Origin: a virus | Reading direction: 5' to 3' (one strand) | DNA length: 64,000 nt | IMG/VR virus record: IMGVR_UViG_3300018080_000003 | Coordinates: 64,001 to 128,000 of that record | Shown here: piece after piece, positions 8,187 through 32,573 of the stretch | Layout: every line of letters begins with the position of its first letter | How positions within the stretch are numbered: position 1 is the first letter of the stretch | Notes under the pieces: generated by a model | What the model was told of the DNA's origin: nothing | What the model saw: the letters and a program-made list of their open reading frames with translations, nothing else | The model's database searches: none | Position numbers and translations under genes: made by a program

Positions 8187-8858
8187 TCACCAGACAGCGC
8201 AGGCGTCTCCGAACCAAGCGGCGAAAGTGTCCATGGCATCGAAGACGACATCCTTCTTCTCTACGCGATGGTAGTGAAGGCCCCAGGGGCGGTCTTTGTT
8301 GGGTCGAGGAGAGCCAGCGTTGTAGGCGGCGTAGACGAGGATCGGATCCCAGTAGCAGGTGTAGCGTTCGTTGATCTGCCGAAGCATTTCTGCTCCGAGG
8401 AGGACACTGGCGGTGTTGTTGTGTAGGACGCGTCGCCACTCTTGCAGGTTCCCTCCTTGAGGGATGGGTTTCATGTGGGCGATGTCTTTGCGGTGGAGGT
8501 GAGGGGCAGAGCGAGCGATCCCCCAGGCGGTCTTGGTCAAAGTCTGCATGACCCCGATGCTCCAGTCATTGAGGTGCTTCTCGTAGCGTTCTCCGCCGTC
8601 GTGGCCGCCGGACTCGTTGGCGATGGTGGCGGCGAGCAGCTGGATGGGCACACCGGTGTCGAGGAAGACTTGCTCCATCAGTTCGCCGAATCGGTCTTTG
8701 ATCCGCGTCAGGGTCTTCGGCTCACCTCGGGTGCGCCTGACGGAGCTTTCTCCTTGGACAAGTACGCCTTCTGGAACGATTTTCCAGATGTGGCCCTTGG
8801 TGCCCTTGATGCGGTGAAAGCGCTCGGGGTCCCAGGTTTCGCAGTCTTCGACCAACAT
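8187..8858 (-). CDS. Lytic transglycosylase (SLT domain)
   Basis: LAATIANESG, SIGVMQ and AAYNAG motifs. Confidence 0.85.
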   Translation of the reverse strand: MLVEDCETWDPERFHRIKGTKGHIWKIVPEGVLVQGESSVRRTRGEPKTLTRIKDRFGELMEQVFLDTGVPIQLLAATIANESGGHDGGERYEKHLNDWSIGVMQTLTKTAWGIARSAPHLHRKDIAHMKPIPQGGNLQEWRRVLHNNTASVLLGAEMLRQINERYTCYWDPILVYAAYNAGSPRPNKDRPWGLHYHRVEKKDVVFDAMDTFAAWFGDACAVW

Positions 8859-10009: not shown

Positions 10010-11104
10010 CATACGTTCCAGCCGGTGAAGCGCATGTTCTTGATCAGCGCGAAGCGGGTGGGCTTCAGCTGTCCTTGGATGATCTCGTGGTCGAGTCGTC
10101 CATCTCGGTATCGGATGAGCTTGATCTGACCAGGTCCTGGGAGGCAGGGGCTGTCGGGACCAGCGGGGGTGTTGGGGATGCTGGTGTAGTGTCCCTCTTC
10201 GATGTCGAGGTAGCTCGTAGCTACAATGTCGTTCATGAGTTCTTCTTCTTCTTCTTCTTCTTCAGAAAGCCGATGATCTCTCGGAATTGCTTGGCGGTCA
10301 TGGTGACGATCATCTGATCGCTCATGGTTTCGAGGTCGTTGAGGTCGTCGTCGGACCAAATCCACTTGCCGTCTCGTTCTTCGCATGCGGAACGCATCCG
10401 CTCAAGCTGAGAGCGGAGCTTGTCGCGCTCGGCTTCAGCCTGGATGAGGGCTTCGGCGAGTGTGTGGCTCTTGATACCAGAAGCAACGTGGCTCATGACT
10501 CTTTCTCTTCAATCTTCTTGATGGCTTCACCGAAGTGCTTAAGCGCTTCGTAGAACTGGTCTTCATCGAACCAGTAGCTCAGTCGGTAGCGTGGTTTGTC
10601 CCTGATGTCGGTCTTGGCGATGATGTACGGAGCGGCAGTGGCCTGTCTAGCACGGGCCTCGTCGAGCTGTTTGTACATCGACTGGAGCAGCTCTTTGCCT
10701 TGGTTCTTCTCTTGGAGAGCTTGCAAAGCCTTGTTGACGTGTTCGACGATCTTGTCGAGGTTGAAGGTGCCATCTTTGCGTACCTTGAAGGTCTTGTCGG
10801 GGACAACCTTCCGGCCATGTAGGCGTACGCCTTCGACGGTCAGCTCGGGATTCTTGGTGCTCCAGCTTTGGAATCCTCCAGCAGAGTGTCGAAATTCTTC
10901 TCTGATCCAAACAGAGACGTTCCCGTGCGGGTTGAGTCGTTTGAGGTCTGCGTTTGAGACGAACATCTGCTGAGGTCTATCCCAACTGCTGCTCGTCTTT
11001 GCGTCCAAGACCTTGAAGTCTTCTTCGCAGAATCGGCTGAAGGCCTGGTTCCAGGCTCGCTTCATCTTCGAAGAGAGGCTGAGTTCTTCGTATTTCTTGT
11101 TCAT
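10009..11104 (-). other. Three hypothetical CDS (10009-10236, 10233-10496, 10493-11104)
   Basis: ATGA-coupled - strand ORFs. Confidence 0.6.
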
Positions 11105-11124
11105 TTGTTGTTCCCCTTTCTTAG

Positions 11125-11196
11125 AGCCACCAACAGGAGTCGAACCTGCAACCGTCGCCTTACAAGAGCGCTGCTCTACCGTTGAGCCATGGTGGC
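11125..11196 (-). tRNA. tRNA-Thr(TGT)
   Basis: GCCACCA/TGGTGGC acceptor, GCTC/GAGC D-stem, loop CTTGTAA, GGTTCGACTCC T-arm; CCA not encoded. Confidence 0.9.
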
Positions 11197-11198
11197 GA

Positions 11199-11567
11199 TC
11201 AAGGCTTATCTCCTCTCAGGCACCTGCCATGGTGTCCGAGGGCGAGAACGCACCCACCTCTCTGGCAAGTGACGATGTTGTAGGACGTAGCGCCGTCCGC
11301 CCCTCGGGGCGGTGCGGGGTGGGTAGCCGCCATCGGGCGGCCCTTCAAAAGCTCGTGCTCTTGGCGATATACTTTGGCCCAGGCTTCGAGGTCGGCGGTG
11401 TTTCTGGTGTCGGGGTAGTTGAAGCGGGGGAGGCCGCAGGCGCACTTCTGACCGCATCCGCAGTGACAGAAGAAGCCGCACCAGTTCTCTTCCTCTTTGG
11501 GCTTCTCTTCAGTGCACACGCAGACGCACTTCTCTCCTTCACACCACGGGCAGGTGGGGTCATTCAT
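11199..11567 (-). CDS. Cys-rich hypothetical protein
   Basis: CPWC, CVCVC, CHCGC and C-terminal C/H cluster. Confidence 0.5.
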   Translation of the reverse strand: MNDPTCPWCEGEKCVCVCTEEKPKEEENWCGFFCHCGCGQKCACGLPRFNYPDTRNTADLEAWAKVYRQEHELLKGRPMAATHPAPPRGADGATSYNIVTCQRGGCVLALGHHGRCLRGDKP

Positions 11568-11836
11568 GGCGACTCGGGGCTCTCTTCTGGAAGCTGAAGC
11601 CACCAGTACTCTTCTCGCTGGGTCACGAGGCCTTGCTTCCGGAGGTAGTTGAGGTGAAACCAAGCAGTCTGGTAGGACATGTCGATGGCTTCGGCGACTT
11701 CGCTGGTGGATGCGCACTCAAGCGCGTGGATGCAGCGGATGACTTGACCTCGGGTGGTCTGGCTGGCGATCCAACAGAGGTGGCGGTCGGGCAGCTTTCG
11801 GACCTCTTCTGCCTCCCAGCGAGCGTCACTCATCAA
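11564..11836 (-). CDS. Winged helix-turn-helix protein (ArsR-like)
   Basis: STSEVAEAIDMSYQTAWFHLNYLRKQGLV. Confidence 0.7.
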   Translation of the reverse strand: MMSDARWEAEEVRKLPDRHLCWIASQTTRGQVIRCIHALECASTSEVAEAIDMSYQTAWFHLNYLRKQGLVTQREEYWWLQLPEESPESP

Positions 11837-12026
11837 TCTTCTTGCTCCTCGTTAGAGGGAGGAAGGGTGCAGGTGTGAGGATGAGCAGGATTCCGATGAC
11901 CAGGATCAGCTGGTCGAGGTCGCTCACCTTCTCATACACAGCCTTAACTCACTCCTAGCTTGGATTTCAGCCTCTTGAGGTCGTCCATCTCTCCATCCAG
12001 CCATCGTTCTCGCTTTTGGATGAAGT

Positions 12027-20110: not shown

Positions 20111-20577
20111 GCGAAAGATGATCAGCTTGAAACCTTCACCCACTGGACGCCCAGCTGTCTGGCTGCTTCGACGTCGCAGTTCTTGTCTCGGTAGATCCCT
20201 TCTGGGTCCAGACTGGAGGGCTCAACTGGGTCTCCCGGGAAGAAGGTCCAGACGCTCAGGTCCTCCTCGTTTTCTTCGTCTTCTGGACGCGGGCGTAGTG
20301 CTCATGCCCAGTGCGTGGAAGCCAGTGGAAACAGCGCTTTCACTTCTTTTAGGCGTTCGCCCCTGTAGTGGAACTTCTCAGACAGTCTCTTAGGTCCCCA
20401 GAACCATCGAGCCTGAAAGCTGTTCCAGCATAGGTAGTTTCCTCCGATCGACAAGATCACCATCATCCCTCCTCGGAAGTCCCCGAGCCTTGCGGCTGAG
20501 GCCCAGAAGGCAGAACAGCGCCCTTCGGGGCGCCGCGCTGCGTGGCTCATGCGTTCACGTGCTCTAGCGTTCGCGGC

Positions 20578-21429
20578 TCACTTGACGTCCTCCGCGGTCA
20601 CGGGGCCCTGGTCCTCGGTCAGGCCGCGCGGGAACATGCTCCGCCGCGTGGGCGGTTGCATCTCGGCGGCGACCTTGGGTAGGTGCTCCTTGGCGGCTGC
20701 GACGCTCCGCGGGTCGGGCTCGTAGTTGTCCTGGAACTCGAAGCCCAGCTGCCCGTCGCCCAGCTCGTTGAGTAGCTGGACGGCTTGCTCTTCGACCTCC
20801 GCCTTGAACTCGGCTTCGAGGGCGGCGAGTCGCTGCGACCAGCGCACGGCTTTCTTGGCCCGCTCGCGAATCACGTTCGCGTACTGGCTGCAGATGACGT
20901 TGCCGATGCGAGCACGCTCCTCGGCGGCCATCAGATCGGCGACCTTGGCGAGGGCGTTCTCGATGTAGCGGGGTAGGTCTTGGTCGATGCCATCGTCGAG
21001 GAAAGCGGCGTTCGCCTCTTCTTCGGAGATGATCTGACTGGGCTTGTCTGCTTTGAATCGTCGGTCGGCGAAGAAAGTCACCTGACGTCCGTAGCCAAAG
21101 CCAGCGCTGGACTCGTCTTTGCGACTGTCGTTCCACCGACTGCTGAATTCTCCTGAGTACTTCTTGCCGTGCTCCTCTTCGAGCTGACGCTCAACGTCGA
21201 GCTTGATGAACCACCAGCCACTGACGTGGCGGTCTTCTTCGTGCTCCACTCGGAAGTACTCGATCGCTCGGTACTTCTCGTCGGTCATGTACACGTCGAT
21301 GGCTATCGAAGCATGCCGGTAGTAGAGCTTGTCCTTCCGGTTGTCCTTCGTGTGGGTGTTCCACCGATCGTCGGTGAAAACGTAGTCTGGCTTGTTGGCC
21401 ATCTCTTGCTTCTCTTGCTGCTGTTCCAT
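20578..21429 (-). CDS. Hypothetical protein
   Basis: AAGGAGGACAAC-ATG start, 283 aa. Confidence 0.7.
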   Translation of the reverse strand: MEQQQEKQEMANKPDYVFTDDRWNTHTKDNRKDKLYYRHASIAIDVYMTDEKYRAIEYFRVEHEEDRHVSGWWFIKLDVERQLEEEHGKKYSGEFSSRWNDSRKDESSAGFGYGRQVTFFADRRFKADKPSQIISEEEANAAFLDDGIDQDLPRYIENALAKVADLMAAEERARIGNVICSQYANVIRERAKKAVRWSQRLAALEAEFKAEVEEQAVQLLNELGDGQLGFEFQDNYEPDPRSVAAAKEHLPKVAAEMQPPTRRSMFPRGLTEDQGPVTAEDVK

Positions 21430-21506
21430 GTTGTCCTCCTTTGGTTCACGAATCGTCACCGAGCACGGTCCCGAAGGACCGAGCCCGAGAACGCGCCGTG
21501 AAGCGC

Positions 21507-22130
21507 TCAGAATGCGACCGTGACGACTTCGCCCCGCTTCGTGCGGGCCGAGCGGTAGCCGTGGGGCCGCTCGATGCCGAGGGCGACCCGCGCCGTCTGC
21601 GCGGCGCCCACGGCCGCGGCGCCCCGGGTCCCGAACGAAGCCCTGAGGCTGAGGTCCAGCAGCTCGTCGTGGTAGTAGACCAGTCTGGTTTCGACCCAGC
21701 GCCCGGGGCTGTCTGGGTCCTCGCTTACGGCCAGGAAGTACTTGATCCCAGACGGCTGCGCGATGACGGCGACGTTGCCTGACTTGTCGCTGATGAGTCT
21801 GCACTCATTCATGGCTGTCTCCTACAGGCTGTAGGCCTGGTACTTGGTTGACGTCCCCCGCATCGCGCCAAAGCTCGATCCGGTCCGCCCGAGACGGGCG
21901 GCGATGACGAAGCGCCGGGTGTCGGGGCAGACCTCGGCTTGCTCGACGATCGTGCCCTCGACCACGTCCTCCTCGGGCTCGAATCCCATGCGGATGGCGT
22001 AGTCGCGATCGAACTTGGCGTGCCGCTCGCACAGCACGTCAAACGATCCGTAGCGGTGCGAGAGCGCTGCTGCCACGCGGACAGCGTTGTCGCTGTACTC
22101 GCGCGGCATCCCTTGCTTGTAGTAGTTCAT
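21507..22130 (-). other. Two hypothetical CDS (21507-21812, 21822-22130)
   Basis: AGGAG RBS before each ATG. Confidence 0.65.
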
Positions 22131-22204
22131 GGTTGTTGTCCTCCTCTCAGCTCGCGTACGCGTGCACGCGAGCTGAGAGAAGGGCAGCAAGCTGCCCCTG
22201 CCCG
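22131..22204 (-). repeat. Cassette-junction element R1 (two hairpins plus RBS)
   Basis: GGGCAG-CTTG-CTGCCC, long stem, AGGAGGACAACAACC-ATG. Confidence 0.85.
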
Positions 22205-22249
22205 TCATTCCCAGACGGGCATGTCGTTTTCATCCCAGTGCCAGTCCAT
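22205..22249 (-). CDS. 14-aa micropeptide MDWHWDENDMPVWE
   Basis: AGGAGG RBS 5 nt before ATG; fills the space between upstream stop and R1. Confidence 0.5.
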   Translation of the reverse strand: MDWHWDENDMPVWE

Positions 22250-22258
22250 GGTCTCCTC

Positions 22259-22648
22259 CTAGAAATTGAAGTCGTAGTACTCGCTGCGCTTGCCGAGCAC
22301 CACGGTTCCCCCGCGTTGCTTGGTCGGCGTGCCTACGTGCTTGTAGATGTAGCCCTCGGCGTTCGGCCGCTTGCGGCGCGTGACGACCAGACGCTCACCG
22401 TCCGGGTTGCGTTCGTAGCGGTACCGCTGCGTGCCACTGGTGTGGCCCGCGAAACCTCCCGGACTGAACTGCAGCGCATCGGGCTCTCCCGAGCCATGTC
22501 CGTTCAGCAGGATGGCGCGGTCGCGCTGGAGCACGAGCTTGCGCCCGTTCTCCTTCACCTCGATGACAGTGAATGCCTGGCGATCGCTGTAGCAGTACAG
22601 CGTCGCGCCCATGCCGACCTCTGGTCGGACTTCCGTTTCGGTGTTCAT
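22259..22648 (-). CDS. Phage hypothetical protein
   Basis: PEVGMGAT...SDRQAFTVI...EYYDFNF; strong RBS in R2. Confidence 0.75.
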   Translation of the reverse strand: MNTETEVRPEVGMGATLYCYSDRQAFTVIEVKENGRKLVLQRDRAILLNGHGSGEPDALQFSPGGFAGHTSGTQRYRYERNPDGERLVVTRRKRPNAEGYIYKHVGTPTKQRGGTVVLGKRSEYYDFNF

Positions 22649-22719
22649 GTTGTTGTCCTCCTCTCTAGGCACATGTCGTGCATGTGCCCAGAGACGAGGG
22701 CAGCAAGCTGCCCCGCGGC
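22649..22719 (-). repeat. Cassette-junction element R2
   Basis: 22644-22713 is the exact reverse complement of 25527-25596. Confidence 0.9.
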
Positions 22720-23454
22720 TCAGTGAGCCGCAATCCAAACCGACTTGGCCCCCGACGCGTTGCCGCGGCAGAGCCCGCAGGTGGCGCACGTAGCGCGACC
22801 CGAGACCGCCGGACAAGACACCTCACCCTTGGCCGGAGCCGCATCGCGGTCCTCGTCAGCCCGGAAGTAGCGCCAGCCCGCGGCCCGCGCCTCGGTCGCA
22901 TCCGCCGGACTGTCGCAGCTGGCCATGAGCCATGCCGCAAGCTCCGGGCGCGAACGCCACGAGTGAGTGTAGCCGGTCCAAGAACCCGCCGCGTCGGCCA
23001 GCTCCGCTACCAGCTCCACTGGCAGCGCAGCCGGGTCACCGTACGCCCCAAAGCGAAGCGCCTTACCGCGCAGACGCGACAGCGCCCGAACCTTGTTGGT
23101 CCCGCGGCTGTAGGTCGACGCCCACACGCTACGTGGCGCCTGAAAGGCGCGCTTGGCGACGTAGCACATGGTGAGACCGTTCTCCCGGGCCACCGAAGGG
23201 CGCCGAGGACAGTCGCCGCAGATCGCAGCGTCCTCGCCCGTTTTGATCGCCTCATGCGGCGCGACGTCGGCAGGAAGGATCCACAGCTGGACCATGTGGC
23301 CCGTCTTAGTATTCTTGCTGTCGGCGTCGAGACCCGTCAGGACCGCGACGATCGGCTCGCCGTTGAGCCGCGACGGTCCGCGCCAGATCACCTCAGACCG
23401 AGGCGTCCGCTTTCGGATCACGTCGCGCTTGGCGCGAATGTTGATCAATTGCAT
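22720..23454 (-). CDS. Cys-rich phage protein (gp88/DUF7227-like, possibly Fe-S binding)
   Basis: NTKTG, CGDCP..CY, LRFGAYGDP, GYTHSW, CPA...CATCGLC. Confidence 0.65.
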   Translation of the reverse strand: MQLINIRAKRDVIRKRTPRSEVIWRGPSRLNGEPIVAVLTGLDADSKNTKTGHMVQLWILPADVAPHEAIKTGEDAAICGDCPRRPSVARENGLTMCYVAKRAFQAPRSVWASTYSRGTNKVRALSRLRGKALRFGAYGDPAALPVELVAELADAAGSWTGYTHSWRSRPELAAWLMASCDSPADATEARAAGWRYFRADEDRDAAPAKGEVSCPAVSGRATCATCGLCRGNASGAKSVWIAAH

Positions 23455-23527
23455 GTTGTTGTCCTCCACTCTGCGCGCATGCGTCACATGCACGCAGAGG
23501 GGAGAGCAGCAAAGCTGCCCAGACGGC
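23455..23527 (-). repeat. Cassette-junction element R3
   Basis: GGGCAGCTTTGCTGCTC, long stem, GGAGGACAACAAC-ATG. Confidence 0.8.
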
Positions 23528-23962
23528 TCACTGCTCGCGCAGCACCGTCATCGCATCCTCGTCGAGGCCCGCGAGGAATTCGTCGACCTTGTCCACGGTC
23601 GCGACGCACGCCTCGTAGATGCGCTCTGCGCGTCGCGAGTCCGTGTCGTACCCAAACTCCGCACAGAAGTCCTCGAAAGACTCGCAGTAGCGAGCCGCGT
23701 CCGCGTCGGACATCAGGCTGTGAAGCACGTCCGCCGCTTTGGGTTCGTGCTGAAACGCCGGACCCATGTGGAAGCTGGTGGTCAGCGTCCGCATGGCAGG
23801 CTTGCTGAAGTGAGGGCCCGGTCCGGGCCAGCTCAGCGTGACCGTCCAGCTCGTAGACCCAGCCGGCATGTCGCTCGGGGTGACGTCCACGCAGCCCATG
23901 ACGGACTGCGTGCGGATCCCAAGCTTTTTGCAGAGCTTGTCTGCGTCAGTGAGATTGTTCAT
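23528..23962 (-). CDS. Phage hypothetical protein
   Basis: ADVLHSLMSDA...SFEDFCAEFGYDTDSRRAERIY; strong RBS. Confidence 0.75.
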   Translation of the reverse strand: MNNLTDADKLCKKLGIRTQSVMGCVDVTPSDMPAGSTSWTVTLSWPGPGPHFSKPAMRTLTTSFHMGPAFQHEPKAADVLHSLMSDADAARYCESFEDFCAEFGYDTDSRRAERIYEACVATVDKVDEFLAGLDEDAMTVLREQ

Positions 23963-24039
23963 GATTGTTGTCCTCCTGCGGAGCCCCGTTGCGCACGGAG
24001 CCCCGCAGGAGAGCAGCAAACGCTACTCTCGCGTCGCGG
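23963..24039 (-). repeat. Cassette-junction element R4
   Basis: GAGAGTAGCGTTTGCTGCTCTC, long stem, AGGAGGACAACAATC-ATG. Confidence 0.75.
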
Positions 24040-24297
24040 TCAGGCCGCGTCCTCGTCGGCGACCATCAGCACCACGTGGTGCCGCGACCCGCCGTCGGTG
24101 GTCCCGCAGCAGTCGCACGAGCGCCACGAGAACTCCTCGTCGCGCTCCGCGTCGCCGTTGCAGAGCCATCCTTCCTGCGAGAGCGCATCCAGCCCCTCGG
24201 CTACCTCGCGCTCGCGCTCGTCGGTGATGTCATCCACGTAGCCGTGCGCAATCGTGTGCACACAGTCCACGCAAACCTCTAGGTCGTGAGTTTGCAT
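24040..24297 (-). CDS. Small acidic Zn-binding phage protein
   Basis: CVDC...FSWRSCDCCG...GSRH; AGGAGG RBS. Confidence 0.7.
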   Translation of the reverse strand: MQTHDLEVCVDCVHTIAHGYVDDITDEREREVAEGLDALSQEGWLCNGDAERDEEFSWRSCDCCGTTDGGSRHHVVLMVADEDAA

Positions 24298-24589
24298 ATC
24301 TGTCCTCCTGTCGCCCACTAGGGCAACGCTGACCCCCGTTGCGCTCTGCAGCGCCCCGGGCCGTCGTTCCACCCCCTGCCCCACCGCTGCACCCCGATGC
24401 CCCTGGCCTGTGAAGCGTGACGCTAATAGTAATTAGCGTCACGTATAACATGGTACGTTACGGTTACTGAAATATCGTCACGCACCACACAACAAGTAAA
24501 ACGGGGGTCAGCGGTGGGGCAGGGGGTGACCGGCAGGGTCGAGGCACAACGGGGTGCCGCGATGGTACAGCCGGTGAGAGGACATACAG
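24298..24589. promoter_or_regulatory. Symmetric divergent control hub
   Basis: 20-bp perfect inverted repeat 24370-24389 / 24509-24528; palindrome 24416-24443; AT-rich core; strand switch. Confidence 0.75.
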
Positions 24590-24996
24590 ATGACCAAGCT
24601 ACTTACTAAGAGCATCGAGCGATGGCGCGCTACGGCGAGTCAGCGTCGCTTGCACGGCGGTGCGACCGTCACGCGGTTCTTCGTCTGCGAAGCGGACGGG
24701 GAGCGCCACGGCGAATTCGTCGGTTATGGCCGAACGCCTGGCGACCGTAAGAGCTATGCCATGGCTGCCGCCCGCAAAGCGTGGGGGCTGTCATGATGCG
24801 GCTCTGCTACTACCCAGCGAACGTGGCTTGGGGGTTCGTCTTTGGCGACACCCCGATCCGCATGGGCGACGGGCCGCTGCTCTACAGCGGGAAGAACGCC
24901 AAGGCGAGGGCCAAGGCGGACGCGGCGCGGCAGGGCCTGACGGTCGTGCTCGGACGCGTGGTTCCCGCGGGGCCTAACCGCGACGCGGCTCGCTGA
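24590..24996 (+). other. Two small hypothetical CDS (24590-24796, 24793-24996)
   Basis: GAGGA RBS; ATGA coupling. Confidence 0.6.
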
Positions 24997-25069
24997 GCCG
25001 TTCGGGCAGCTTGCTGCCCTGCTTTCAGCTCGCATGCCAGACATGCGGGCTGAAAGGAGGACAACAACC
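24997..25069 (+). repeat. Cassette-junction element R5
   Basis: Covaries with R1; GGGCAGCTTGCTGCCC at 25004-25019. Confidence 0.85.
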
Positions 25070-25519
25070 ATGAAAACTATCGAGCTGAAACAAGACACGA
25101 TTCTCGTGTCGGCAACGACGCCCCTCGGAAGCCCGATCCTCACTGAGGACGACGGCATGGGCCCGCTCTGGGCCTGGAGCGACAACCCCTACGGTGGCGT
25201 CTCTGCCATCGTTCGGGCGCAGTCCTACGAGAAGGCTCTGGAGATCGTTTACGATCTCCTGCCGACGATCCCGGAAGACGAGGTGCACGAGGCCTATGGC
25301 TTCGACTGCGAGGGCGAGTTCCAAGCGGCCATCTCGCGGGGCGAGCAGCCGGAGCTGATCGAAGGCTACCACGACCAAGCCAACAGGAGCGGCACGGGAA
25401 TTGTCTCCGTCGACCACTGCGAGCGCATGTGGAAGCTGGACCACGAAAACGCAAAGTATGCGGTCCGGCTGAAGGTGCGTCACTTGGACGACGTTCTTCT
25501 CGACGACTTGTTCGATTGA
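25070..25519 (+). CDS. Hypothetical acidic protein
   Basis: Bounded by R5 and R6. Confidence 0.7.
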   Translation: MKTIELKQDTILVSATTPLGSPILTEDDGMGPLWAWSDNPYGGVSAIVRAQSYEKALEIVYDLLPTIPEDEVHEAYGFDCEGEFQAAISRGEQPELIEGYHDQANRSGTGIVSVDHCERMWKLDHENAKYAVRLKVRHLDDVLLDDLFD

Positions 25520-25591
25520 GATGTCAGGGCAGCTTGCTGCCCTCGTCTCTGGGCACATGCACGACATGTGCCTAGAGAGGAGGACAACAAC
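25520..25591 (+). repeat. Cassette-junction element R6
   Basis: Identical to R2 over 70 bp, inverted. Confidence 0.9.
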
Positions 25592-26440
25592 ATGAAGTAT
25601 GCGACAAAACGCTTGCTCGATTCCGTCTGGACCGTGGCATTCACGGTCACGAAGGATGGCAAGGCAACGATCCACGGCTACAGCCGTGACTGCCAGCTGG
25701 GTTACGACCTGGAGGGCGATCTTCCGGTGTGCCGGCTCATCGAGGGTCCAGGCCGTGAGGTAAAGGCGCTCGACGTCAAGCTCGCGACCGAAGCGGGCTC
25801 GCGTTCGACCTTGTATCAGGTGTCGAACCCTCGGCACGTATTCAGCTACGGCGAGGTACAGGTATGACGACCACCAGGCGTGCACGGCGCTTCGCGAACC
25901 AATACGGGTTCGGCTCCGATCTTCGAAAGCTCAAGCGGCCGGCTCGGCGGCGCGAGCGCCGCAACATCAACCAGGCGATCCGACGCGGCGACTACGATGC
26001 GGCGATGCGCCCCCTGACAGAGAGGTACGTGGCATGAACAAGAACACGGAGAAAGCCGCCAGGTTTCATATCCGCTGCTGCCTGCGACGTGGGCGCAGCA
26101 AAAGCCAGGCCTACAACCAGCTGACGCGAGCGTTCGGCTATGGTCCGGACATCGGTGCACTCATCGACGATGAGTACGAGAAAGCGAAAGGGGACGTGGC
26201 ATGAATCTGAACGGCAACATCAAGCATGGCCGCTTCGGCGGCGACGTGTTGGCGGCTACGCGCTGGGAGAAGAGGGAAGGCATGCGAAAGAGTCGTGTCG
26301 TCCTGATCCAGATCGCCAGCGAGTGGTGTACAGCCATCCACTGCGAGGGGGATTATGAGTGGCTGTACGGCAAGTACTTCGTGACCCCGGAAGCGGCGTG
26401 GGAGAGCTTCACGGAGCGGGCGCGAGACTTGCTCTCGTGA
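25592..26440 (+). other. Four small coupled CDS (25592-25867, 25864-26037, 26034-26204, 26201-26440)
   Basis: ATGA overlaps; the two middle ORFs are under 60 aa and both end GTGGCATGA. Confidence 0.6.
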
Positions 26441-26512
26441 GGCGATAAGACAGCAGGGATGCTGTCTTCCTTTCGGTGCCTGGCATGGGTCAGGCTTCGA
26501 AAGGAGGACAAC
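26441..26512 (+). repeat. Cassette-junction element R7 (diverged)
   Basis: AAGACAGCA-GGGA-TGCTGTCTT, CCTTTCG...CGAAAGG stem, AGGAGGACAAC-ATG. Confidence 0.65.
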
Positions 26513-27174
26513 ATGAACACGTTCAACATCAAGACGGACGAGCACGGCGATCAGACCGTCGAGATCCGAAACGAGCAGGGCGACGTGGTGGCTGAGATCA
26601 TCGCGGTGCCCGTCAGCAAAGATGGCATGAGCATCGACGTTCGGCCGATGGTTCACGCCAGGGTGCAGAACATCGTTTTCGGTGTCGATGAGATGGATCG
26701 CATGAGCGACCGCTTCGTGTACAACACCAAGAACCACAACGGCAACATCAACGATGTTTGCCTCCCCTTCGTGTGCGTGGAGGTCAACCCGTCATGAGAC
26801 AGCTACCGGCAAACCTTCAGGGAAAGCTCATCGAGAGCTACTACGACGGGGGCGAGACCCCGCTCGACTACAACCACCCCGACTTCGACGCGACGCGCGT
26901 CGCGACCGCCATCGTGCGGCACGCCTACGCGATGGGCATCGAGGAGGGGCGAGACCGCGCCGAAGGTCGCTACCCGATGGTTAACGGGAGGATGGGTGCG
27001 CGAGTAAAGCATCCTGTGGGGGGAGAAGAGGTACACGCACAAGACGCGATCGAAGACCTTGATGGCATCCTTTGTGTGATCCTCAGCCATCTGGTCGGTC
27101 GTATGCGGTACACGGAGATGGTCATCGCGCGGGCTCACCAGGAGCTAGAGCGGGCGGTCGTCAAAGAAGCCTGA
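26513..27174 (+). other. Two hypothetical CDS (26513-26797, 26794-27174)
   Basis: RBS and ATGA coupling. Confidence 0.6.
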
Positions 27175-27273
27175 GAGGGAAGCGCCTTGCTGGCGCCCCT
27201 CGGGGCGCACGAAAGTTCAATCCAATTGAACGTTCGTGCGGCCCGAGGTGCACGAGCACCCAAGGAGACAAGC

Positions 27274-27662
<389 letters not shown>

Positions 27663-27666
<4 letters not shown>

Positions 27667-29758
27667 ACGGCTCTCCCATCTCTGTGGGCAGCAAGGTGCA
27701 CGTCGGCGAGCCCTACTCGGACGAGTACGACGAGGGCACCGTCGTCGAGCGTGAAGGCGACTGTCTCCTGGTCTTCTGGTCGCGCTGCGGCGAGGAGTAC
27801 TGGGAGGCAGAGGACGTGCTGAACCACGGTCACCCTGGCTGCTGGCCGGAGGTGCCGATCGCTGAGCGCGCGAGCTGAGCTGAGTTGAGCGTGCAGACTT
27901 GAGCGGCCCTCAGGCCGCCGCCGCGCCCCTTGGGGCGCCGTGTCCACTCTCCGTCCTCCGGGACGGGGCGTGGCCACGGTGCATCAGGCATCGACAGGAG
28001 GACGACATGGAACGACATCAGATCAACAACGAGGACCACGACCGCCAGGCGCTCGAAGCCTGTGCGGCATCCCACGAGCAGTTTCTCCATGAGCTGGGCG
28101 CCTTCATGGGCATGCTCAAGGAAGATGCCGAGGCCAAGGACCTCGACCACACCGACGTCTTTCGGCTCATCGACGAGGCGGCGAAGATCCTGGGTCCGAA
28201 CACCCGGCTCGATCAGCACGTCCAGTGCACGCAGGAGCTGATCCGAAACCTCGCGGAGGCCGGGCGCTCGCACCGCATCGCCTGGGTTCGCCGCGGGCTG
28301 CAGACCGCTTACAACGGCGCCAAGCGGCACCGCGACTACCTGAGAGGCGAGCTTTGAGCTGACCCTTCCTCGCTAGGGCCTGAGGAGCTATCTTCTCGGG
28401 CCCCTGCGAGGGCGCGTGAGCCCAACAGAGGAGAACCAAAGATGATCAGAAGGAAGGCAAGCACGGTGCAGCAGTCACAGCGCGAGCGCGAGAAGGCGCG
28501 GGCGTATTGGAACACGCTGATGCCTCAGGACAAGGAAGCGCTCGCGGACGCGATGGTGTTCGGCGAGAACCTGGTCGAGGCCGGGTTCTTCGAGCGGCTT
28601 CCGAGCGGCATCTTCCAGGATGAGCTGGGCGAGCTGATGGTTCAGCGAGAGATCGACTTCATCCCCCGCGCATGAGCGTGGGTCGAAAGGGGACAGACAT
28701 GAACGACGACAAGGCAGGAAAGATCGCGCTGCTCGCGGCGGAGAACGCGGCGGAAGGCTTCATCTACGGCATGGTGCAACATGCAGCGGAGGCCATCAAC
28801 AAGCTGGCGGAGGATCACTCAGTGAGACTCACCGACGCGAAGATCCGACTCAGTTACGGCCGCCGTCGCGGCATGAACGTGAGCTACGGCTGGCGCGCGG
28901 AGATCGAAAAGGGCGCCTTCGACGTGGATGAGGGCGCCGTCTACGCGTTGCGCGACATCGCGGAGAACGGTCGGAGCTGGGAGTCGGACGGCGCCGTGAG
29001 GGCGGTGGAAACGATGATCTCCTGGATGGGAGAGGTCTTCCGCGCTGGATCTCGGCGCCCGTCGTGGGAGGACTCAAAGTGAGCTACAAGAGCCTCAGCG
29101 ACGCGCCCTGGTGCCAGGCCCTGAACGACTGGATCGAATCCCAGAACGCTCGGGTGCTCTGGCGCGAGCTGAAGACGGACCGGGAGGTCAGCTGCTACGA
29201 GGCGAAGGGTAAGATCTTCGTGGTCGTCGCCTACGCCCACGGCTGGGAGCTGCTCATTCCTGCGTCCGCAGACAACGACGTCAAGAAGACGCTGGAGGCC
29301 GCGGAGGCCTACCTCAACGCACACCACGAAGGAGAAAACTGATGCCATTCATCGTAGGCAAAGAACTGCGCGCTGGAGCGCGCCTGACCATCTCAGCACC
29401 GCAGGGGGGAGGCGAGAGTAACCCTGGAATGACCATCTCCGTCTCAGACGACGCTTCTCTGACGGAGGCTTTGGAGATCCAAATCAGCCACGAGGACCTC
29501 ATGCGGGCGCTGACCGGCCACGGCTATATCCGATGCCAGGCCACCTGGCGCGTGTCCAAGCTCGGGCTCAAGCGCGAGCACAAGGAAGAGAAAGGTGTGA
29601 CCGAGGAGAACCTTCACACCTTTGAAGTCGATGGCTGGAAGGGCCGGAAGGAAGACCTCAAGAACTTCCATCGCAGAACCTACGACAAGAAGAGCGGGGA
29701 GTACACCGCTCGCGTTGGCTTCGAGCGCTGGGTTCCGATCGAGGACGAGGATGTATGA
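27663..29758 (+). other. Six hypothetical CDS (27663-27878, 28007-28357, 28442-28675, 28699-29082, 29079-29342, 29342-29758)
   Basis: Consecutive + strand ORFs with RBS. Confidence 0.6.
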
Positions 29759-29867: not shown

Positions 29868-31070
29868 ATGACTGCCAAGCTCAAGGCTGTGGAAGAACAG
29901 CCCAAGACCAACCCACTGCACGACAAGGTCGTGTCCATCCGCCGCGCCCTTGAGGGCGCCATGCTGGAGCGCGAGGACGCGATCGAAGCGCTCATGCTCG
30001 CGTTCGTGACGCAGGAGCACGTCGTCTTCGAGGGGCCGCCCGGCACGGGCAAGAGCTACTTCGTCGATGCGCTCTTCTCGTGCATGGAGGCCGACAACCG
30101 CTACGTGCGGCGGCTCATCCACAAGTTCATGACCCCGACCGAGTTAATCGGCGGGATGGACCTGAAGCACTTCCAGGAGCACGGCCGGGTGCGCACGGTC
30201 ATCGAGCGCGGCCCGGCTACGGCGGAGGCGGTGTTCCTGGATGAGATCTTCAAAGCGAACGGCGCGTGCCTCAACTCCCTACTCAGCCTGCTCAACGAGC
30301 GGCTGTTCATGGACCAGGAGCGAGGGACCATCGAGGTGCCCCTGCGCATGTGCGCGGCGGCCTCCAACGAATTCCCCGAGGACAAGAGCCTCGCGGCGCT
30401 GTACGACCGGTTCCTGTTCCGCTGCCAGGTGAGCTTCCTGCGGCCCGAAAACCGCAAGCGGCTGCTCATGCGCAAGGCTGGCCAGGACAAGCGGGCGCAG
30501 GCCTTCGAGCCGCCCGTTCAGCTCACTACCGACGAGTGGGATCAGATCGCCGCCGAGGCCGACGAGGTCACCATCCCCGAGGCCGTCATCGACGCCATCC
30601 AGAGCTTGGAGCACAAGCTCTTTCACGAGCACGGCCTTACCAGCTCCGACCGGCGCTTCGTTCAAGCCCTGCGCGCCATCAAGGCCGCTGCCTGGCTCGA
30701 TGGGGACGACGAGGCCGACGTCAGCCACATCGAGGCCCTTCGCTTCGTGCTCTGGGACACCCCCGAGCAGCGGGAGAAGGTCGAGGACGCCATCGCAGCC
30801 ATGGACCAGGGTGAGACCAAGGCGCTCATCGACGCCATGGACAACGCCCTGCGCGCCTTCCACAGCCGCCCCACCGAGAACGCGGCCCTCTACGAGGCCA
30901 TCCCGCAGATCCTCGCAGGCATCAAGGCTGCCGCCGAGCAGGCCCGCGAAGCGGTCACCTCCGGCCGGCTCTCGCGCAAAAACGTCGACAAGATCAAGCG
31001 CCGCGGCGCTGAGGTCGCCGAAGCGCACAAGGAACTCATCAAGCTCATGCAGTCTGGGGTGGAGTTCTGA
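29868..31070 (+). CDS. MoxR/RavA-family AAA+ ATPase
   Basis: GPPGTGKS Walker A, FLDEIFKAN Walker B, AASNE, ALYDRF, SDRR. Confidence 0.9.
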   Translation: MTAKLKAVEEQPKTNPLHDKVVSIRRALEGAMLEREDAIEALMLAFVTQEHVVFEGPPGTGKSYFVDALFSCMEADNRYVRRLIHKFMTPTELIGGMDLKHFQEHGRVRTVIERGPATAEAVFLDEIFKANGACLNSLLSLLNERLFMDQERGTIEVPLRMCAAASNEFPEDKSLAALYDRFLFRCQVSFLRPENRKRLLMRKAGQDKRAQAFEPPVQLTTDEWDQIAAEADEVTIPEAVIDAIQSLEHKLFHEHGLTSSDRRFVQALRAIKAAAWLDGDDEADVSHIEALRFVLWDTPEQREKVEDAIAAMDQGETKALIDAMDNALRAFHSRPTENAALYEAIPQILAGIKAAAEQAREAVTSGRLSRKNVDKIKRRGAEVAEAHKELIKLMQSGVEF

Positions 31071-31074
31071 GGTC

Positions 31075-31449
31075 ATGACCTACACCCACCAAGTCCCCAG
31101 CTACAAGCATGGACCCACGGCCAAGGCGCTCATCGCGCAAGGCTGGGCCCTGCACGTCGTGGAGACCTACAGCAGCAAGAACTACACGGACCTTCTCATC
31201 CGGATCATCCCCGCCGCTGAGACCCTCGCCGGTCTCGCCGCCGATGAGGGCATCCGCATGCTCAAGCTCGATCGCTACGACATCAATGTCCGCGTCCGCA
31301 TGGACGAGTCCGCGCCTCCCAGCATCGACGATGCCGTCGAGTATGCCTCCAGGTGCTTCGCCAAGAGCATCCACAACACCCTCGGCCGCTACGTCGAGCG
31401 CCTTCAGTCCGTCCTCAGCCGTGTCCCCGTCCCTCAGGAGAAGTCATGA
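31075..31449 (+). CDS. Hypothetical protein
   Basis: Between ATPase and VWA genes, coupled to the latter. Confidence 0.55.
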   Translation: MTYTHQVPSYKHGPTAKALIAQGWALHVVETYSSKNYTDLLIRIIPAAETLAGLAADEGIRMLKLDRYDINVRVRMDESAPPSIDDAVEYASRCFAKSIHNTLGRYVERLQSVLSRVPVPQEKS

Positions 31450-32573
31450 GCATCGAAACATCCTCTGCCTGGAAGGCTGCCACTGGCGCCTTCAGTCCAG
31501 ATCCCGGCTCTTGGGCCGAAGCGTTCATGGACACGATGCCTCAGCAGTACGCTTCCCTGCTCGCGAGAGGTGGCCCGGCCCTGGACTGCGCCGTCAAGCG
31601 GCACAACGAAGCGAAGACCAACATGTTCTCCCAAGGTCACCGAAGCCCCTTCCACATGCGAGAGACCTGCCGCGAAGCTTGGAGACGCTTCCAGGAAGAA
31701 GCAGAGCGGCGTGAGTCTCTCGAATTCGGCCTCGGCTTCGACCAGTCCGACAGCTGGGACCACAGTTTCCGTGCCGAGCTGCCCCAGAAACTGCGACCCG
31801 CCAAGGTCTACGACATCGCCCGGCTCGCCGGCCGGCTGGTCGTCGCGCTGCGTGGAGAGAAGGCAAAGAAGGTCTCTTCTGTACCCGAGGAGGTCTACGA
31901 CGTCGAGCTGGGCGGTGACCCCTCCCGTCTGCTCACCAGCGAACTGATGCACCTCGGGCAACCCACCGAGCTGATGCTCCTCAACCGCATCAACGAGCAG
32001 CGCGCCCTGCAGTACAAGCTGCGCGGAGAAGCAGCCGCCAAGCGCGGACCGCTGATCATCGCCATCGACGAGTCGGGCTCGATGGGCGGAAGCGGCTTCA
32101 AGCGCGGCGTCTGGGCCAAGGCTGCCGCTGTGGCGCTCACCCGTCTGGCCTGGGAGGACGATCGGCCCGTCATCTGGGTCCACTGGTCGACCACCGTCAG
32201 CAGCACGGAGATGCCCAAGCCCGACAAAGACAAGCTCGCCTACGCCATCCGGCACTTCTACGGCGGAGGTAACGACTGCGCAAAGGCGCTTTCCCGAGCA
32301 GGCAAGCTTGTCTGCCGGCTCCGTGAGGCTGGCCATCCAGGAGGAGACGTCATTCTCATCACCGACGGGGTCGAGAAGTGGGGCGAAGAAATCGAGCACG
32401 CCATCGACAGCATCGAAGACAGTGACGCGCGGCTCTGGACCATCGGCATCGAGGTCGACTGTCGCATTGAGGCAGACGCACCCATCCGCGCCCGCGCCGC
32501 GGCCTACACGGCCATCAAAGAGGGCGGTCTTAGCCAGGCTGACCTCGGAAGCGCGAAGGGAGCGGTGCTGTGA
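31446..32573 (+). CDS. VWA-domain protein (ViaA-like partner of MoxR ATPase)
   Basis: MIDAS IAIDESGSM, GGGND, LITDG. Confidence 0.85.
   Translation: MSIETSSAWKAATGAFSPDPGSWAEAFMDTMPQQYASLLARGGPALDCAVKRHNEAKTNMFSQGHRSPFHMRETCREAWRRFQEEAERRESLEFGLGFDQSDSWDHSFRAELPQKLRPAKVYDIARLAGRLVVALRGEKAKKVSSVPEEVYDVELGGDPSRLLTSELMHLGQPTELMLLNRINEQRALQYKLRGEAAAKRGPLIIAIDESGSMGGSGFKRGVWAKAAAVALTRLAWEDDRPVIWVHWSTTVSSTEMPKPDKDKLAYAIRHFYGGGNDCAKALSRAGKLVCRLREAGHPGGDVILITDGVEKWGEEIEHAIDSIEDSDARLWTIGIEVDCRIEADAPIRARAAAYTAIKEGGLSQADLGSAKGAVL

Follow-up and report, generated by a model that had tools for sequence, protein, structure and literature searches.

An uncultured virus with a genome of 143.7 kb carries, on either side of a conserved divergent control region, seven intergenic modules of ~78 nt, four on the minus and three on the plus strand. 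What kind of element is this, and what does it do for the genes that it separates? The features concerned lie in a 64-kb stretch of that genome, hereafter the window, and are given in its coordinates. Both arms, genes C to F and g1 to g9 are taken from the ORF list, and bits are covariance-model (CM) scores.

21427-21498, minus: faint member, one hairpin plus an exact GGAGGACAACATG, 10.2 bits
21822-24297, minus: minus-arm cassettes
21822-22130, minus: gene B, 102 aa
22128-22207, minus: R1, micro-ORF/gene B junction, 78.4 bits, fold z -6.7, exact hairpin-1 16-mer
22205-22249, minus: micro-ORF, 14 codons, conserved
22259-22648, minus: gene C
22646-22722, minus: R2, gene D/gene C junction, 70.8 bits, inverted-repeat arm 22644-22713
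22720-23454, minus: gene D
23452-23530, minus: R3, gene E/gene D junction, 73.7 bits
23528-23962, minus: gene E
23960-24042, minus: R4, gene F/gene E junction, 86.0 bits
24040-24297, minus: gene F
24298-24589, no strand: divergent control region, from which both gene arms run outward
24590-27174, plus: plus-arm cassettes
24590-24996, plus: g1-g2
24994-25072, plus: R5, g2/g3 junction, 77.0 bits, fold z -4.8
25070-25519, plus: g3
25517-25594, plus: R6, g3/g4 junction, 77.1 bits, inverted-repeat arm 25527-25596
25592-26440, plus: g4-g7
26438-26515, plus: R7, g7/g8 junction, 58.5 bits, the most divergent full copy
26513-27174, plus: g8-g9
27172-27276, plus: degenerate linker with several hairpins, junction of g9 with the gene after it, 17.3 bits
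27923-28009, plus: degenerate linker with the 3' end GGAGGACGACATG, 19.4 bits, conserved in the related genome L132
28374-28444, plus: faint member, 10.2 bits, E 0.85

The control region is strongly conserved in all four genomes, i.e. this one and its relatives L128, L132 and L135, all of them metagenomic contigs. It contains inverted repeats and coincides with a sign change of the AT skew. If replication began in this central region, the sense strand would be the lagging-strand template in both arms. The two divergent operons are probably early messages, and the absence of internal promoters suggests that each arm is transcribed polycistronically. Family matches of the minus-arm genes are confined to PHROGs of unknown function, and the genes neighbouring the modules have no Pfam family. 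In the plus arm, ATGA overlaps join the genes inside a cassette, while modules occur only between cassettes.

Every module follows the same order: a stop codon, hairpin 1 (6-7 bp), an abutting hairpin 2 (16-20 bp, perfect stem, loop of 4-8 nt), a GGAGGACAAC block and ATG. The seven junctions with a shared layout that the initial annotation described are all present, with coordinates shifted by a few bases, but R1 follows the 14-codon micro-ORF and not directly the 129-aa gene. Degenerate members of 10-19 bits extend beyond the range given for the array, 22131-26512 (27172-27276, 27923-28009 and 28374-28444 on the plus strand, 21427-21498 on the minus strand). A covariance-model search of the 143.7-kb genome found no full copy beyond the seven, all in the two arms, and none was detected in 575 kb of unrelated viral DNA; 17 further copies were recovered from the three relatives, which brings the total to 24 in four genomes. 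All 24 reach from the stop codon of one gene to the ATG of the next, the SD and this start codon forming their 3' end. Each supplies the sole SD of its downstream gene, in a block that starts 10-14 nt before the ATG. They are found solely between non-overlapping cassettes and solely in the two arms, always in sense orientation.

Exact GGAGGACAAC has eight matches in the 64-kb window, every one within 21.4-26.5 kb; with up to one mismatch there are 16 against 5.4 expected, a number reached in none of 100 shuffles. The hairpin-1 16-mer GGGCAGCTTGCTGCCC occurs exactly four times, in R1, R2, R5 and R6, the number of copies reported for it before. The CUUG tetraloop, in contrast, had been taken for a feature of the element but is not conserved, as R3 and most copies in the relatives have a 7-bp stem closed by a UUU triloop. 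R2 and R6 form a perfect inverted repeat of 70 nt (22644-22713 versus 25527-25596, 100% complementary). In Rfam, which had been named as a check, no family reached the gathering threshold for the modules, only tRNAs passing; at E values up to 1, the sole matches were to miRNA-precursor hairpins, far below threshold.

The conserved property of hairpin 2 is its pairing. All window copies fold with z-scores of -4.7 to -6.7 relative to shuffles, none of 200 shuffles being equally stable. Across the 24 copies of the four genomes, 97.3% of the stem positions form standard pairs, compared with 43-54% in slid controls, and 15 of 23 pairs exhibit compensatory changes; none of 500 shuffles attained such values. 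An independent MAFFT alignment gave the same outcome, and the covariation that the initial annotation proposed to look for is thereby borne out, as are the compensatory changes that it saw between R1 and R5 (C-G to U-A, G-C to A-U). The window holds five hairpin 2 stem types with no sequence consensus, whereas the L128 copies are nearly uniform; R4 has a hairpin 2 of the same type as these and agrees in its stems base for base with L132 9369-9447. R7 differs from its L132 orthologue (8397-8478) by a G.U to G-C replacement. Judging from the aligned copies, the compensatory changes between orthologues show selection for pairing. Non-Watson-Crick positions had been described as mostly G-U on the coding strand, and the stem pairs of the seven window copies indeed comprise 145 Watson-Crick pairs, 10 G.U, 0 A.C and 6 other combinations; over all 24 copies and both arms, the coding strand shows 36 G.U versus 0 A.C wobbles. 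Likewise, CM scores amount to 54-96 bits on the sense but only 20-47 bits on the antisense strand. Covariation and the 36:0 ratio point to a structure-constrained module that acts as sense-strand RNA, although a fold of the sense strand as single-stranded DNA would yield the same covariation and, as G.T, the same bias.

A second line of evidence comes from gene order, which is different in all four genomes, with breakpoints that coincide with the modules. L132 corresponds to the window with the R2-R6 segment inverted, the breakpoints being R2 and R6. In addition, a single gene of 130 aa takes the place of D and g4-g7 between an R3-like and an R7-like element, and R3 itself has its homologue at L132 8864-8939, ahead of a different gene. 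L135 and L128 display two further orders. Homologues of the minus-arm genes occupy other positions or arms in the three relatives, and those of the plus arm are also rearranged; insertions, deletions and replacements between the window and each of them map to the repeats. At the orthologous micro-ORF/gene B junction, hairpin 2 is of the R1 type in the window and of the R2/R6 type in L132; the two sequences become identical again within hairpin 1 and within the SD block. The linker at 27172-27276 is ~90% identical in L132 and L135, while the flanking proteins are just 49-56% identical in L135. As read from the assembled sequences, this comparison, which the initial annotation had called for, shows genes swapped, replaced and flipped between operons exactly at the modules, in agreement with the earlier suggestion of exchangeable cassettes and a recombination joint: replacement, arm-swapping and inversion all break at the elements. 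The relatives are metagenomic contigs, and misjoining is possible at the 70-nt repeat of the window genome; in L132 and L135 it is unlikely, because the copies within each share fewer than 31 identical bases.

The module is probably, in our estimation, an intercistronic RNA leader that lacks a promoter, serves in processing, stability or the control of translation, and doubles as a joint for homologous recombination. It would act as RNA within two long divergent, probably early, messages. Hairpin 1 would be placed just past the upstream stop codon, followed by a long perfect hairpin 2 whose sequence is free to vary as long as pairing is kept. The standard start supplied to the next gene would consist of GGAGG, an unstructured ACAAC(AAC) spacer and ATG, the first SD bases being held in the base of hairpin 2. 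A host double-strand RNase of the RNase III type may then cut hairpin 2, or hairpin 2 may at least insulate the start site. Such a cut would free the downstream gene's ribosome-binding site and leave the upstream message capped at its 3' end by hairpin 1. Every cassette would thereby receive the same context-independent expression signals. The genome comparison shows, moreover, that the copies, which share their conserved ends (stop plus hairpin 1; SD block), serve as homology patches, at which general recombination exchanges, replaces or inverts cassettes and converts one element into another. A precedent exists in the promoter-early stem-loops (PeSLs) of T4-type phages (Arbiol et al. 2010, PMC2839356; Comeau et al. 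2014, PMC4122927), which recombine likewise (PMC2839356). Two observations sit less well with the leader. The virus itself encodes no RNase III, and the near-invariance of hairpin 1 exceeds the need of a 3' cap; it may reflect a protein site or merely conversion between copies.

The start site permits other readings. According to folding predictions, the GGAGG of the modules has an unpaired probability of 0.002-0.23, the median over the genome being 0.39 (Mann-Whitney p = 0.001), and the ACAAC spacer is unpaired. Hairpin 2, which had been described as running into the ribosome-binding site, does pair at its base with the first bases of the invariant GGAGGACAAC block, but the predicted burial of the SD is partial. 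When the 3' arm of hairpin 1 is freed in silico, SD accessibility drops from 0.19 to 0.06 in 23 of 23 copies. The module might be a two-state RNA adaptor, in which the downstream start closes when hairpin 1 opens, as a ribosome at the stop codon 6-7 nt away might cause, while hairpin 2 is the cleavage point and a flip-flop of the perfect 70-nt pair R2/R6 maintains the early control segment as a population of both isomers. Hairpin 1 would then restrain an extended anti-SD, making the module a self-contained cassette adaptor beyond a repeated leader, and the flip-flop would re-wire which cassettes follow which promoter arm. We regard this modelled switch as unlikely. The same degree of doubt applies to a translational-regulator operator, in which a viral or host protein reads hairpin 1 and/or GGAGGACAAC and co-regulates the cassettes, with hairpin 2 as scaffold. 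It would account for the invariance or near-invariance of hairpin 1 and the 10-mer block over 24 copies in four genomes whose proteins are 45-95% identical, and the possible two-state switch would suit it. Yet that effect is modest and partly a trivial result of adjacency, conversion between copies alone could explain the conserved sequence, and no candidate RNA-binding protein was found, the neighbouring genes lacking Pfam families.

Slightly less probable still are PeSL-type units, in which every module would combine an attenuator hairpin with a promoter, read by a viral polymerase or by a host sigma factor with some other consensus, and every cassette would be transcribed independently. The layout of stem-loop, SD and ATG beside orphan genes and the shuffling at repeats fit the PeSL description, and hairpin 1 is conserved in sequence past its pairing needs. 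A scan of 20500-29500 found no sigma-70-like promoter at any copy, but it must be insensitive for this host because it was also blank at the central region, where promoters must exist. On the other hand, the elements have a G+C content of 55-73%, contain neither an A+T-rich block nor -35/-10-like hexamers, and share no sequence with the conserved A+T-rich core of the control region; a -10 box could fit solely inside hairpin 2, which varies freely.

Site-specific recombination at the DNA level is very unlikely. The modules would then form single-stranded or cruciform hairpins for a structure-specific recombinase in the manner of attC, where structure is also kept while sequence varies and promoter-less cassettes are exchanged; the one-strand G.T bias is compatible with single-stranded DNA. 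The initial annotation saw no integrase, which holds for this region, but a tyrosine-recombinase domain, a conceivable candidate for such an enzyme, is part of a 1222-aa ORF from window position 61788 onward, ~36 kb from the array. Nothing ties that ORF to the modules. The array has no adjoining recombinase or attI/Pc-like organisation, its perfect stems lack the RYYYAAC/GTTRRRY core and extrahelical bases, the fixed distance to the start codon and the internal SD point to a role in translation, and the sole datable event uses the perfect 70-nt repeat, as homologous exchange predicts. Finally, a selfish REP- or MITE-like miniature repeat that spread into intergenic gaps without a role for the virus, with shuffling as a side effect, is hardly credible: the modules are multi-copy, palindromic, intergenic and on both strands, and the virus carries a TnpB/IS605-type gene (59288-60460), but all copies are oriented with transcription and give the downstream gene its sole SD, target-site duplications are absent, copies are confined to two arms of a 143.7-kb genome, and the compensatory changes of orthologues show selection for pairing.

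Several known systems resemble the leader and recombination joint favoured here. The RNase III sites of coliphages T7 and T3 are intercistronic hairpins of ~20 bp in a long early transcript; once processed, they protect the new 3' end with a hairpin and can unmask a ribosome-binding site. Each T7 site, for which cleavage is established, is one irregular hairpin interrupted by an internal loop. The present stems of 16-20 bp likewise separate cistrons of what appears to be a polycistronic early transcript, but they are perfect, accompanied by a separate small hairpin as would-be 3' cap, dissimilar in sequence to the T7/T3 sites, and only presumably cut by RNase III. Integron attC sites resemble the modules as structure-conserved, sequence-variable hairpins bounding promoter-less cassettes. 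They differ in that no IntI, attI or Pc is adjacent here, the sole tyrosine-recombinase domain being ~36 kb off, R''/L''-L'/R' boxes (RYYYAAC ... GTTRRRY) and extrahelical bases are missing, the module stands 5' of each gene and holds its SD, and exchange looks homologous.

Two kinds of phage linkers that were already known, neither of them mentioned in the initial annotation, come closest. SAS (start-associated sequences) and their extended form, ESAS, occur in Cluster K mycobacteriophages and Cluster EF Microbacterium phages (Pope et al. 2011, PMC3203893; PMC7302621; PMC12699233). The SAS has a 13-nt consensus (GGGATAGGAGCCC in Cluster K, GGGAAAGGACCCC in Cluster EF) located 3-7 nt upstream of the start (PMC3203893; PMC7302621; PMC12699233). 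As in the modules, it is an unusually conserved, asymmetric, SD-bearing block of putative function a few bases 5' of ATG, preceded in ESAS by an inverted repeat, imperfect and ~17 bp long, around a short, variable spacer of 4-13 nt (here arms of 16-20 bp and loops of 4-8 nt), restricted to non-structural genes and always oriented along transcription. The motifs themselves, GGGATAGGAGCCC there and GGAGGACAAC here, are unrelated and alike in position and role only; ESAS arms keep a per-genome sequence consensus whereas the present arms vary and covary, hairpin 1 after the stop codon is additional, cassette shuffling at SAS sites is not described in the literature, and the virus is unrelated to the phages of both clusters.

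PeSLs share even more with the modules: they are intergenic repeats of ~100 nt that bridge the stop codon of one gene and the ATG of the next, with a stem-loop inside and SD plus start codon at the end, clustered beside small orphan genes, and recombination between copies accounts for insertions, deletions and replacements among related phages. Neighbouring copies also form mini-circles by exchange (PMC2839356; PMC4122927). In contrast to the modules, PeSLs have no sequence homology with them, possess a strong sigma-70-like early promoter and an upstream A+T-rich tract, neither of which was found here by a scan insensitive for this host, and contain one hairpin acting as terminator or attenuator instead of two abutting, stable hairpins, none of which is followed by a U tract in any copy. 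The long hairpin of the modules is moreover variable in sequence, clearly covarying and overlapping the SD, and the copies are placed on two divergent arms, so that the control region flips when inverted copies recombine. Taken together, the element is a novel form of the established PeSL-type and SAS/ESAS-type phage gene-shuffling linkers.

All seven full copies of the element described in the initial annotation, four on the minus and three on the plus strand, were recovered with one common plan. In each of these modules of about 78 nt, a TGA stop codon is followed after 6-11 nt by hairpin 1, a short stem of 6-7 bp that reads GGGCAGC-TT(T)-GCTGCCC in five copies. The longer hairpin 2 (16-20 bp, loop of 4-8 nt) abuts it directly, and the 3' end carries the conserved ribosome-binding (SD) block, with an invariant GGAGGACAAC followed by 0-4 nt and ATG. 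The motif counts of the element exceed those in shuffled sequences, and each copy folds 4.7-6.7 standard deviations more stably than its dinucleotide shuffles. A covariance model built from 16 copies retrieved only these seven from the whole genome (58-86 bits), together with four weak or faint members on the same arms (10-19 bits).

Copies of the element in the window
22128-22207, minus strand: R1, full copy
22646-22722, minus strand: R2, full copy
23452-23530, minus strand: R3, full copy
23960-24042, minus strand: R4, full copy
24994-25072, plus strand: R5, full copy
25517-25594, plus strand: R6, full copy
26438-26515, plus strand: R7, full copy
27172-27276: weak or faint member
27923-28009: weak or faint member
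28374-28444: weak or faint member
21427-21498: weak or faint member

The source record is a 143,727-bp IMG/VR virus genome with direct terminal repeats, of which bases 64001-128000 form the window. No close cultured relative was found: a megablast search of GenBank phages with this region gave no match, and the viral helicase is less than 30% identical to that of any cultured (GenBank) phage. In IMG/VR, look-ups with the helicase and with a 1107-aa protein likewise returned no close relatives. From a strand switch at 24298-24589, where the AT skew reverses sign, two sets of small genes diverge, one to the left on the minus strand (genes B to F and a micro-ORF) and one to the right on the plus strand (g1 to g9); by this layout, the arms would be "early" operons. 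Genes inside one cassette overlap by ATGA, and elements are present only at cassette-cassette junctions. None of the adjoining genes belongs to a Pfam family, and at most they match PHROGs of unknown function. R1 is preceded by a 14-codon micro-ORF (22205-22249, minus strand) with its own SD, whose peptide, MDW(H/Y)WDENDMPVW(E/D), is kept in two relatives, L132 and L135 (with a GTG start in the latter), between gene C and the next element. The distal plus-arm linkers at 27172-27276 and 27873-28009 are multi-hairpin, single-copy sequences retaining about 90% identity or more in relatives, while their flanking proteins are far more diverged; for 27172-27276, the values in L135 are about 90% for the linker and 49-56% for the proteins. 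A small plus-arm gene (27501-27742) contains a 9-nt GAC/GAG repeat run encoding an Asp/Glu-rich tract. Elsewhere, the virus encodes a bpMoxR AAA+ ATPase with a VWA-domain partner (29868-32570, plus strand; on the arm opposite g1 in L132), a HisKA/HATPase histidine kinase (56121-57173, plus strand) and a TnpB/IS605 OrfB-type gene (59288-60460, minus strand; OrfB_IS605, Cas12f1-like TNB and HTH).

Compensatory changes, pointed out initially for R1 and R5, extend across 24 copies. Standard pairs occupy 97.3% of stem cells, compared with 43-54% when the partner column is slid by 1-3 positions, and in 15 of 23 pairs both partners vary; the observed values were reached by none of 500 shuffles. With a plain MAFFT alignment of 16 copies the picture is unchanged (13 of 23 pairs compensatory). 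Even where orthologues are almost identical, their differences are compensatory or turn a wobble into a Watson-Crick pair, for example A-U to G-C between R6 and L132 11572 and C-G to U-A between R6 and L132 11040. The covariance model scores the sense strand about twice as high as the antisense strand. Taken together, these sequence patterns support folding of the element as RNA. A fold in single-stranded DNA of the sense strand may also be considered. A strand-neutral DNA palindrome, in contrast, predicts equal numbers of G.U and A.C, whereas the stems contain 36 G.U, the coding-strand bias remarked on earlier, and no A.C. A mini-ORF upstream, inside hairpin 2, was discarded, as its frame differs between copies.

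For the RNA fold, partition-function calculations place GGAGG mostly in pairs with a pyrimidine run (CCUCC, CUUCC) 3' of hairpin 1 in all copies, while the ACAAC spacer and ATG remain open. On average, the SD of the copies is unpaired with a probability of 0.002-0.23, against a median of 0.39 for 151 other SD-led genes of the same genome (p = 0.001). When accessibility is measured at GAGGA rather than GGAGG, the copies equal other genes; per-base and GGAGG-based tests were used instead. By these models, the SD is indeed buried, though only in part. If the 5' arm of hairpin 1 is masked, the opposite arm becomes available to lengthen hairpin 2, and SD accessibility drops further in 23 of 23 copies; this hints at a two-state arrangement, the effect being in part a consequence of adjacency. 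No sigma-70-like promoter was detected at any copy by a scan that is weak and missed the central promoters too. An intrinsic terminator is improbable, given that no copy has a U tract.

The element appears to be a lineage-specific family. Among unrelated viral loci totalling 575 kb, the model found no match. In Rfam, the search of which was suggested in the initial annotation, the element matched no family at the gathering threshold; with E up to 1, the hits were limited to miRNA-precursor hairpins far below threshold. Relatives were obtained by protein look-ups, not by DNA patterns.

Related contigs carrying the element
L128, 8-kb JGI contig: nine full copies, plus a tenth truncated where the contig ends
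L132, 82.9-kb Logan contig: five full copies
L135, 4-kb Logan contig: three full copies
L137, CAZCKC010000299.1, 2278 bp: same virus as L128, nearly identical to its centre

The last contig is binned in an uncultured Planctomycetales MAG, the sole and weak hint to a host in this order. In IMG/VR, the exact 16-mer of hairpin 1 gave 38 single matches, all without the SD block and therefore all chance, and the combined pattern of hairpin 1 and SD gave none. The same pattern yielded two matches in JGI metagenomes, both chance, and one real (L137) and three chance matches in species genomes. Homologues of gene D with 78-79% identity (L123-L127 and L129) belong to operons of tightly overlapping genes in which no elements occur; it is hence the virus lineage, not the gene, to which the element is tied.

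Gene order differs in each of the four genomes, i.e. L128, L132, L135 and the virus studied here, and their comparison located an inversion, a replacement and a conversion at elements, in line with the exchangeable cassettes proposed at the outset. L132 8866-10413 corresponds to window 23457-24999 in the same orientation, 10590-11123 to 25070-25596, and 11050-11944 to 22713-21824 reversed; given this order and orientation, g3 is joined to gene C via one element. R2 and R6 form a perfect 70-nt inverted repeat in the window's genome, and the g3-C join is what an exchange between them would be expected to produce. On the other side, L132 has a single unrelated 130-aa gene in place of D, an element and g4-g7; homology ends at the ATG that follows an R3-like element and restarts just past the stop before an R7-like one. 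In L135, g3 lies on the arm opposite g1, whose own arm carries the order C-E-g8-g9, and in L128, g1 is directly followed by gene D, with g5 and g7 homologues on the other arm. At the orthologous junction of micro-ORF and gene B, the window and L132 agree in the flanks, in hairpin 1 and in the SD block, while hairpin 2 is of R1 type in the former and R2/R6 type in the latter; this is element-to-element conversion, with crossovers in the conserved blocks.

Recombination breakpoints hence fall at element copies. As to mechanism, we favour general homologous exchange because there are no attC-like boxes, the stems are perfect, the SD is built in, and a 70-nt perfect repeat marks the one datable event. 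Assembly artefacts are unlikely to account for the rearrangements: the relatives are divergent in sequence along their whole extent, and fewer than 31 identical bases are common to copies within L132 and within L135. A 1222-aa ORF about 36 kb from the elements (window 61788-64000 and beyond; G000 125788-129456 in the numbering of the full record, minus strand) matches a tyrosine recombinase (Phage_integrase) domain at residues 308-487, the remainder being without a Pfam family.

The control region between the arms (24298-24589) is among the best-conserved non-coding stretches across the four genomes. It harbors a palindrome, GTGACGCTAAT-AGT-ATTAGCGTCAC, and a 56-nt flanking inverted repeat (24370-24425 / 24473-24528). 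The motif CAACGGGG occurs in both leaders, in the minus-arm leader as GCGCAACGGGG, a form seen again in the loop and 3' arm of the R4-type hairpin 2. The conserved A+T-rich core of the control region has no sequence in common with the elements. For GCAACGGGG, considered as a protein-site motif, copies were too few for judgement. Since the AT skew flips there, the region may be a replication origin too.

The element is a structure-constrained, sense-oriented, promoter-less intercistronic module carrying an SD. It would act as RNA within long polycistronic transcripts, where hairpin 2 could serve as a double-strand RNase cleavage site or insulator, hairpin 1 may cap the upstream message, and the SD would be freed for the downstream gene. 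The virus has no RNase III gene; therefore, a host enzyme would be needed.

The origin of phage mosaicism at the borders between genes is a long-standing question, for which Susskind and Botstein reportedly proposed conserved linker sequences. The best example of this answer to date is provided by the promoter-early stem-loops (PeSLs) of T4-type phages. The present case adds a clean promoter-less one from an unrelated uncultured virus lineage, with linkers that are clearly RNA-structured, are conserved above the genes they join, and mark inversion, replacement and element-to-element conversion among only four genomes. It also offers a concrete design by which swapped genes could be expressed independently of context: one hairpin would cap the 3' end, a second, long hairpin would insulate or be cleaved, and a fixed SD would be followed by an unstructured spacer. 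PeSLs are stop-to-ATG repeats with promoter, stem-loop and SD that were shown to recombine, shuffling orphan genes (PMC2839356; PMC4122927). The (extended) start-associated sequences (SAS/ESAS) of actinobacteriophages are conserved SD-containing blocks after an inverted repeat, with untested function (PMC3203893; PMC7302621; PMC12699233). By analogy, the present element would work like both, yet belong to neither: unlike in PeSLs, no promoter was seen, albeit by the same weak scan, and its sequence is not that of SAS. Beyond these two systems, it has a second hairpin, shows clear covariation and lies on divergent arms, an arrangement permitting inversion. The case suggests that SAS/ESAS-type motifs of other phages may act as RNA as well.
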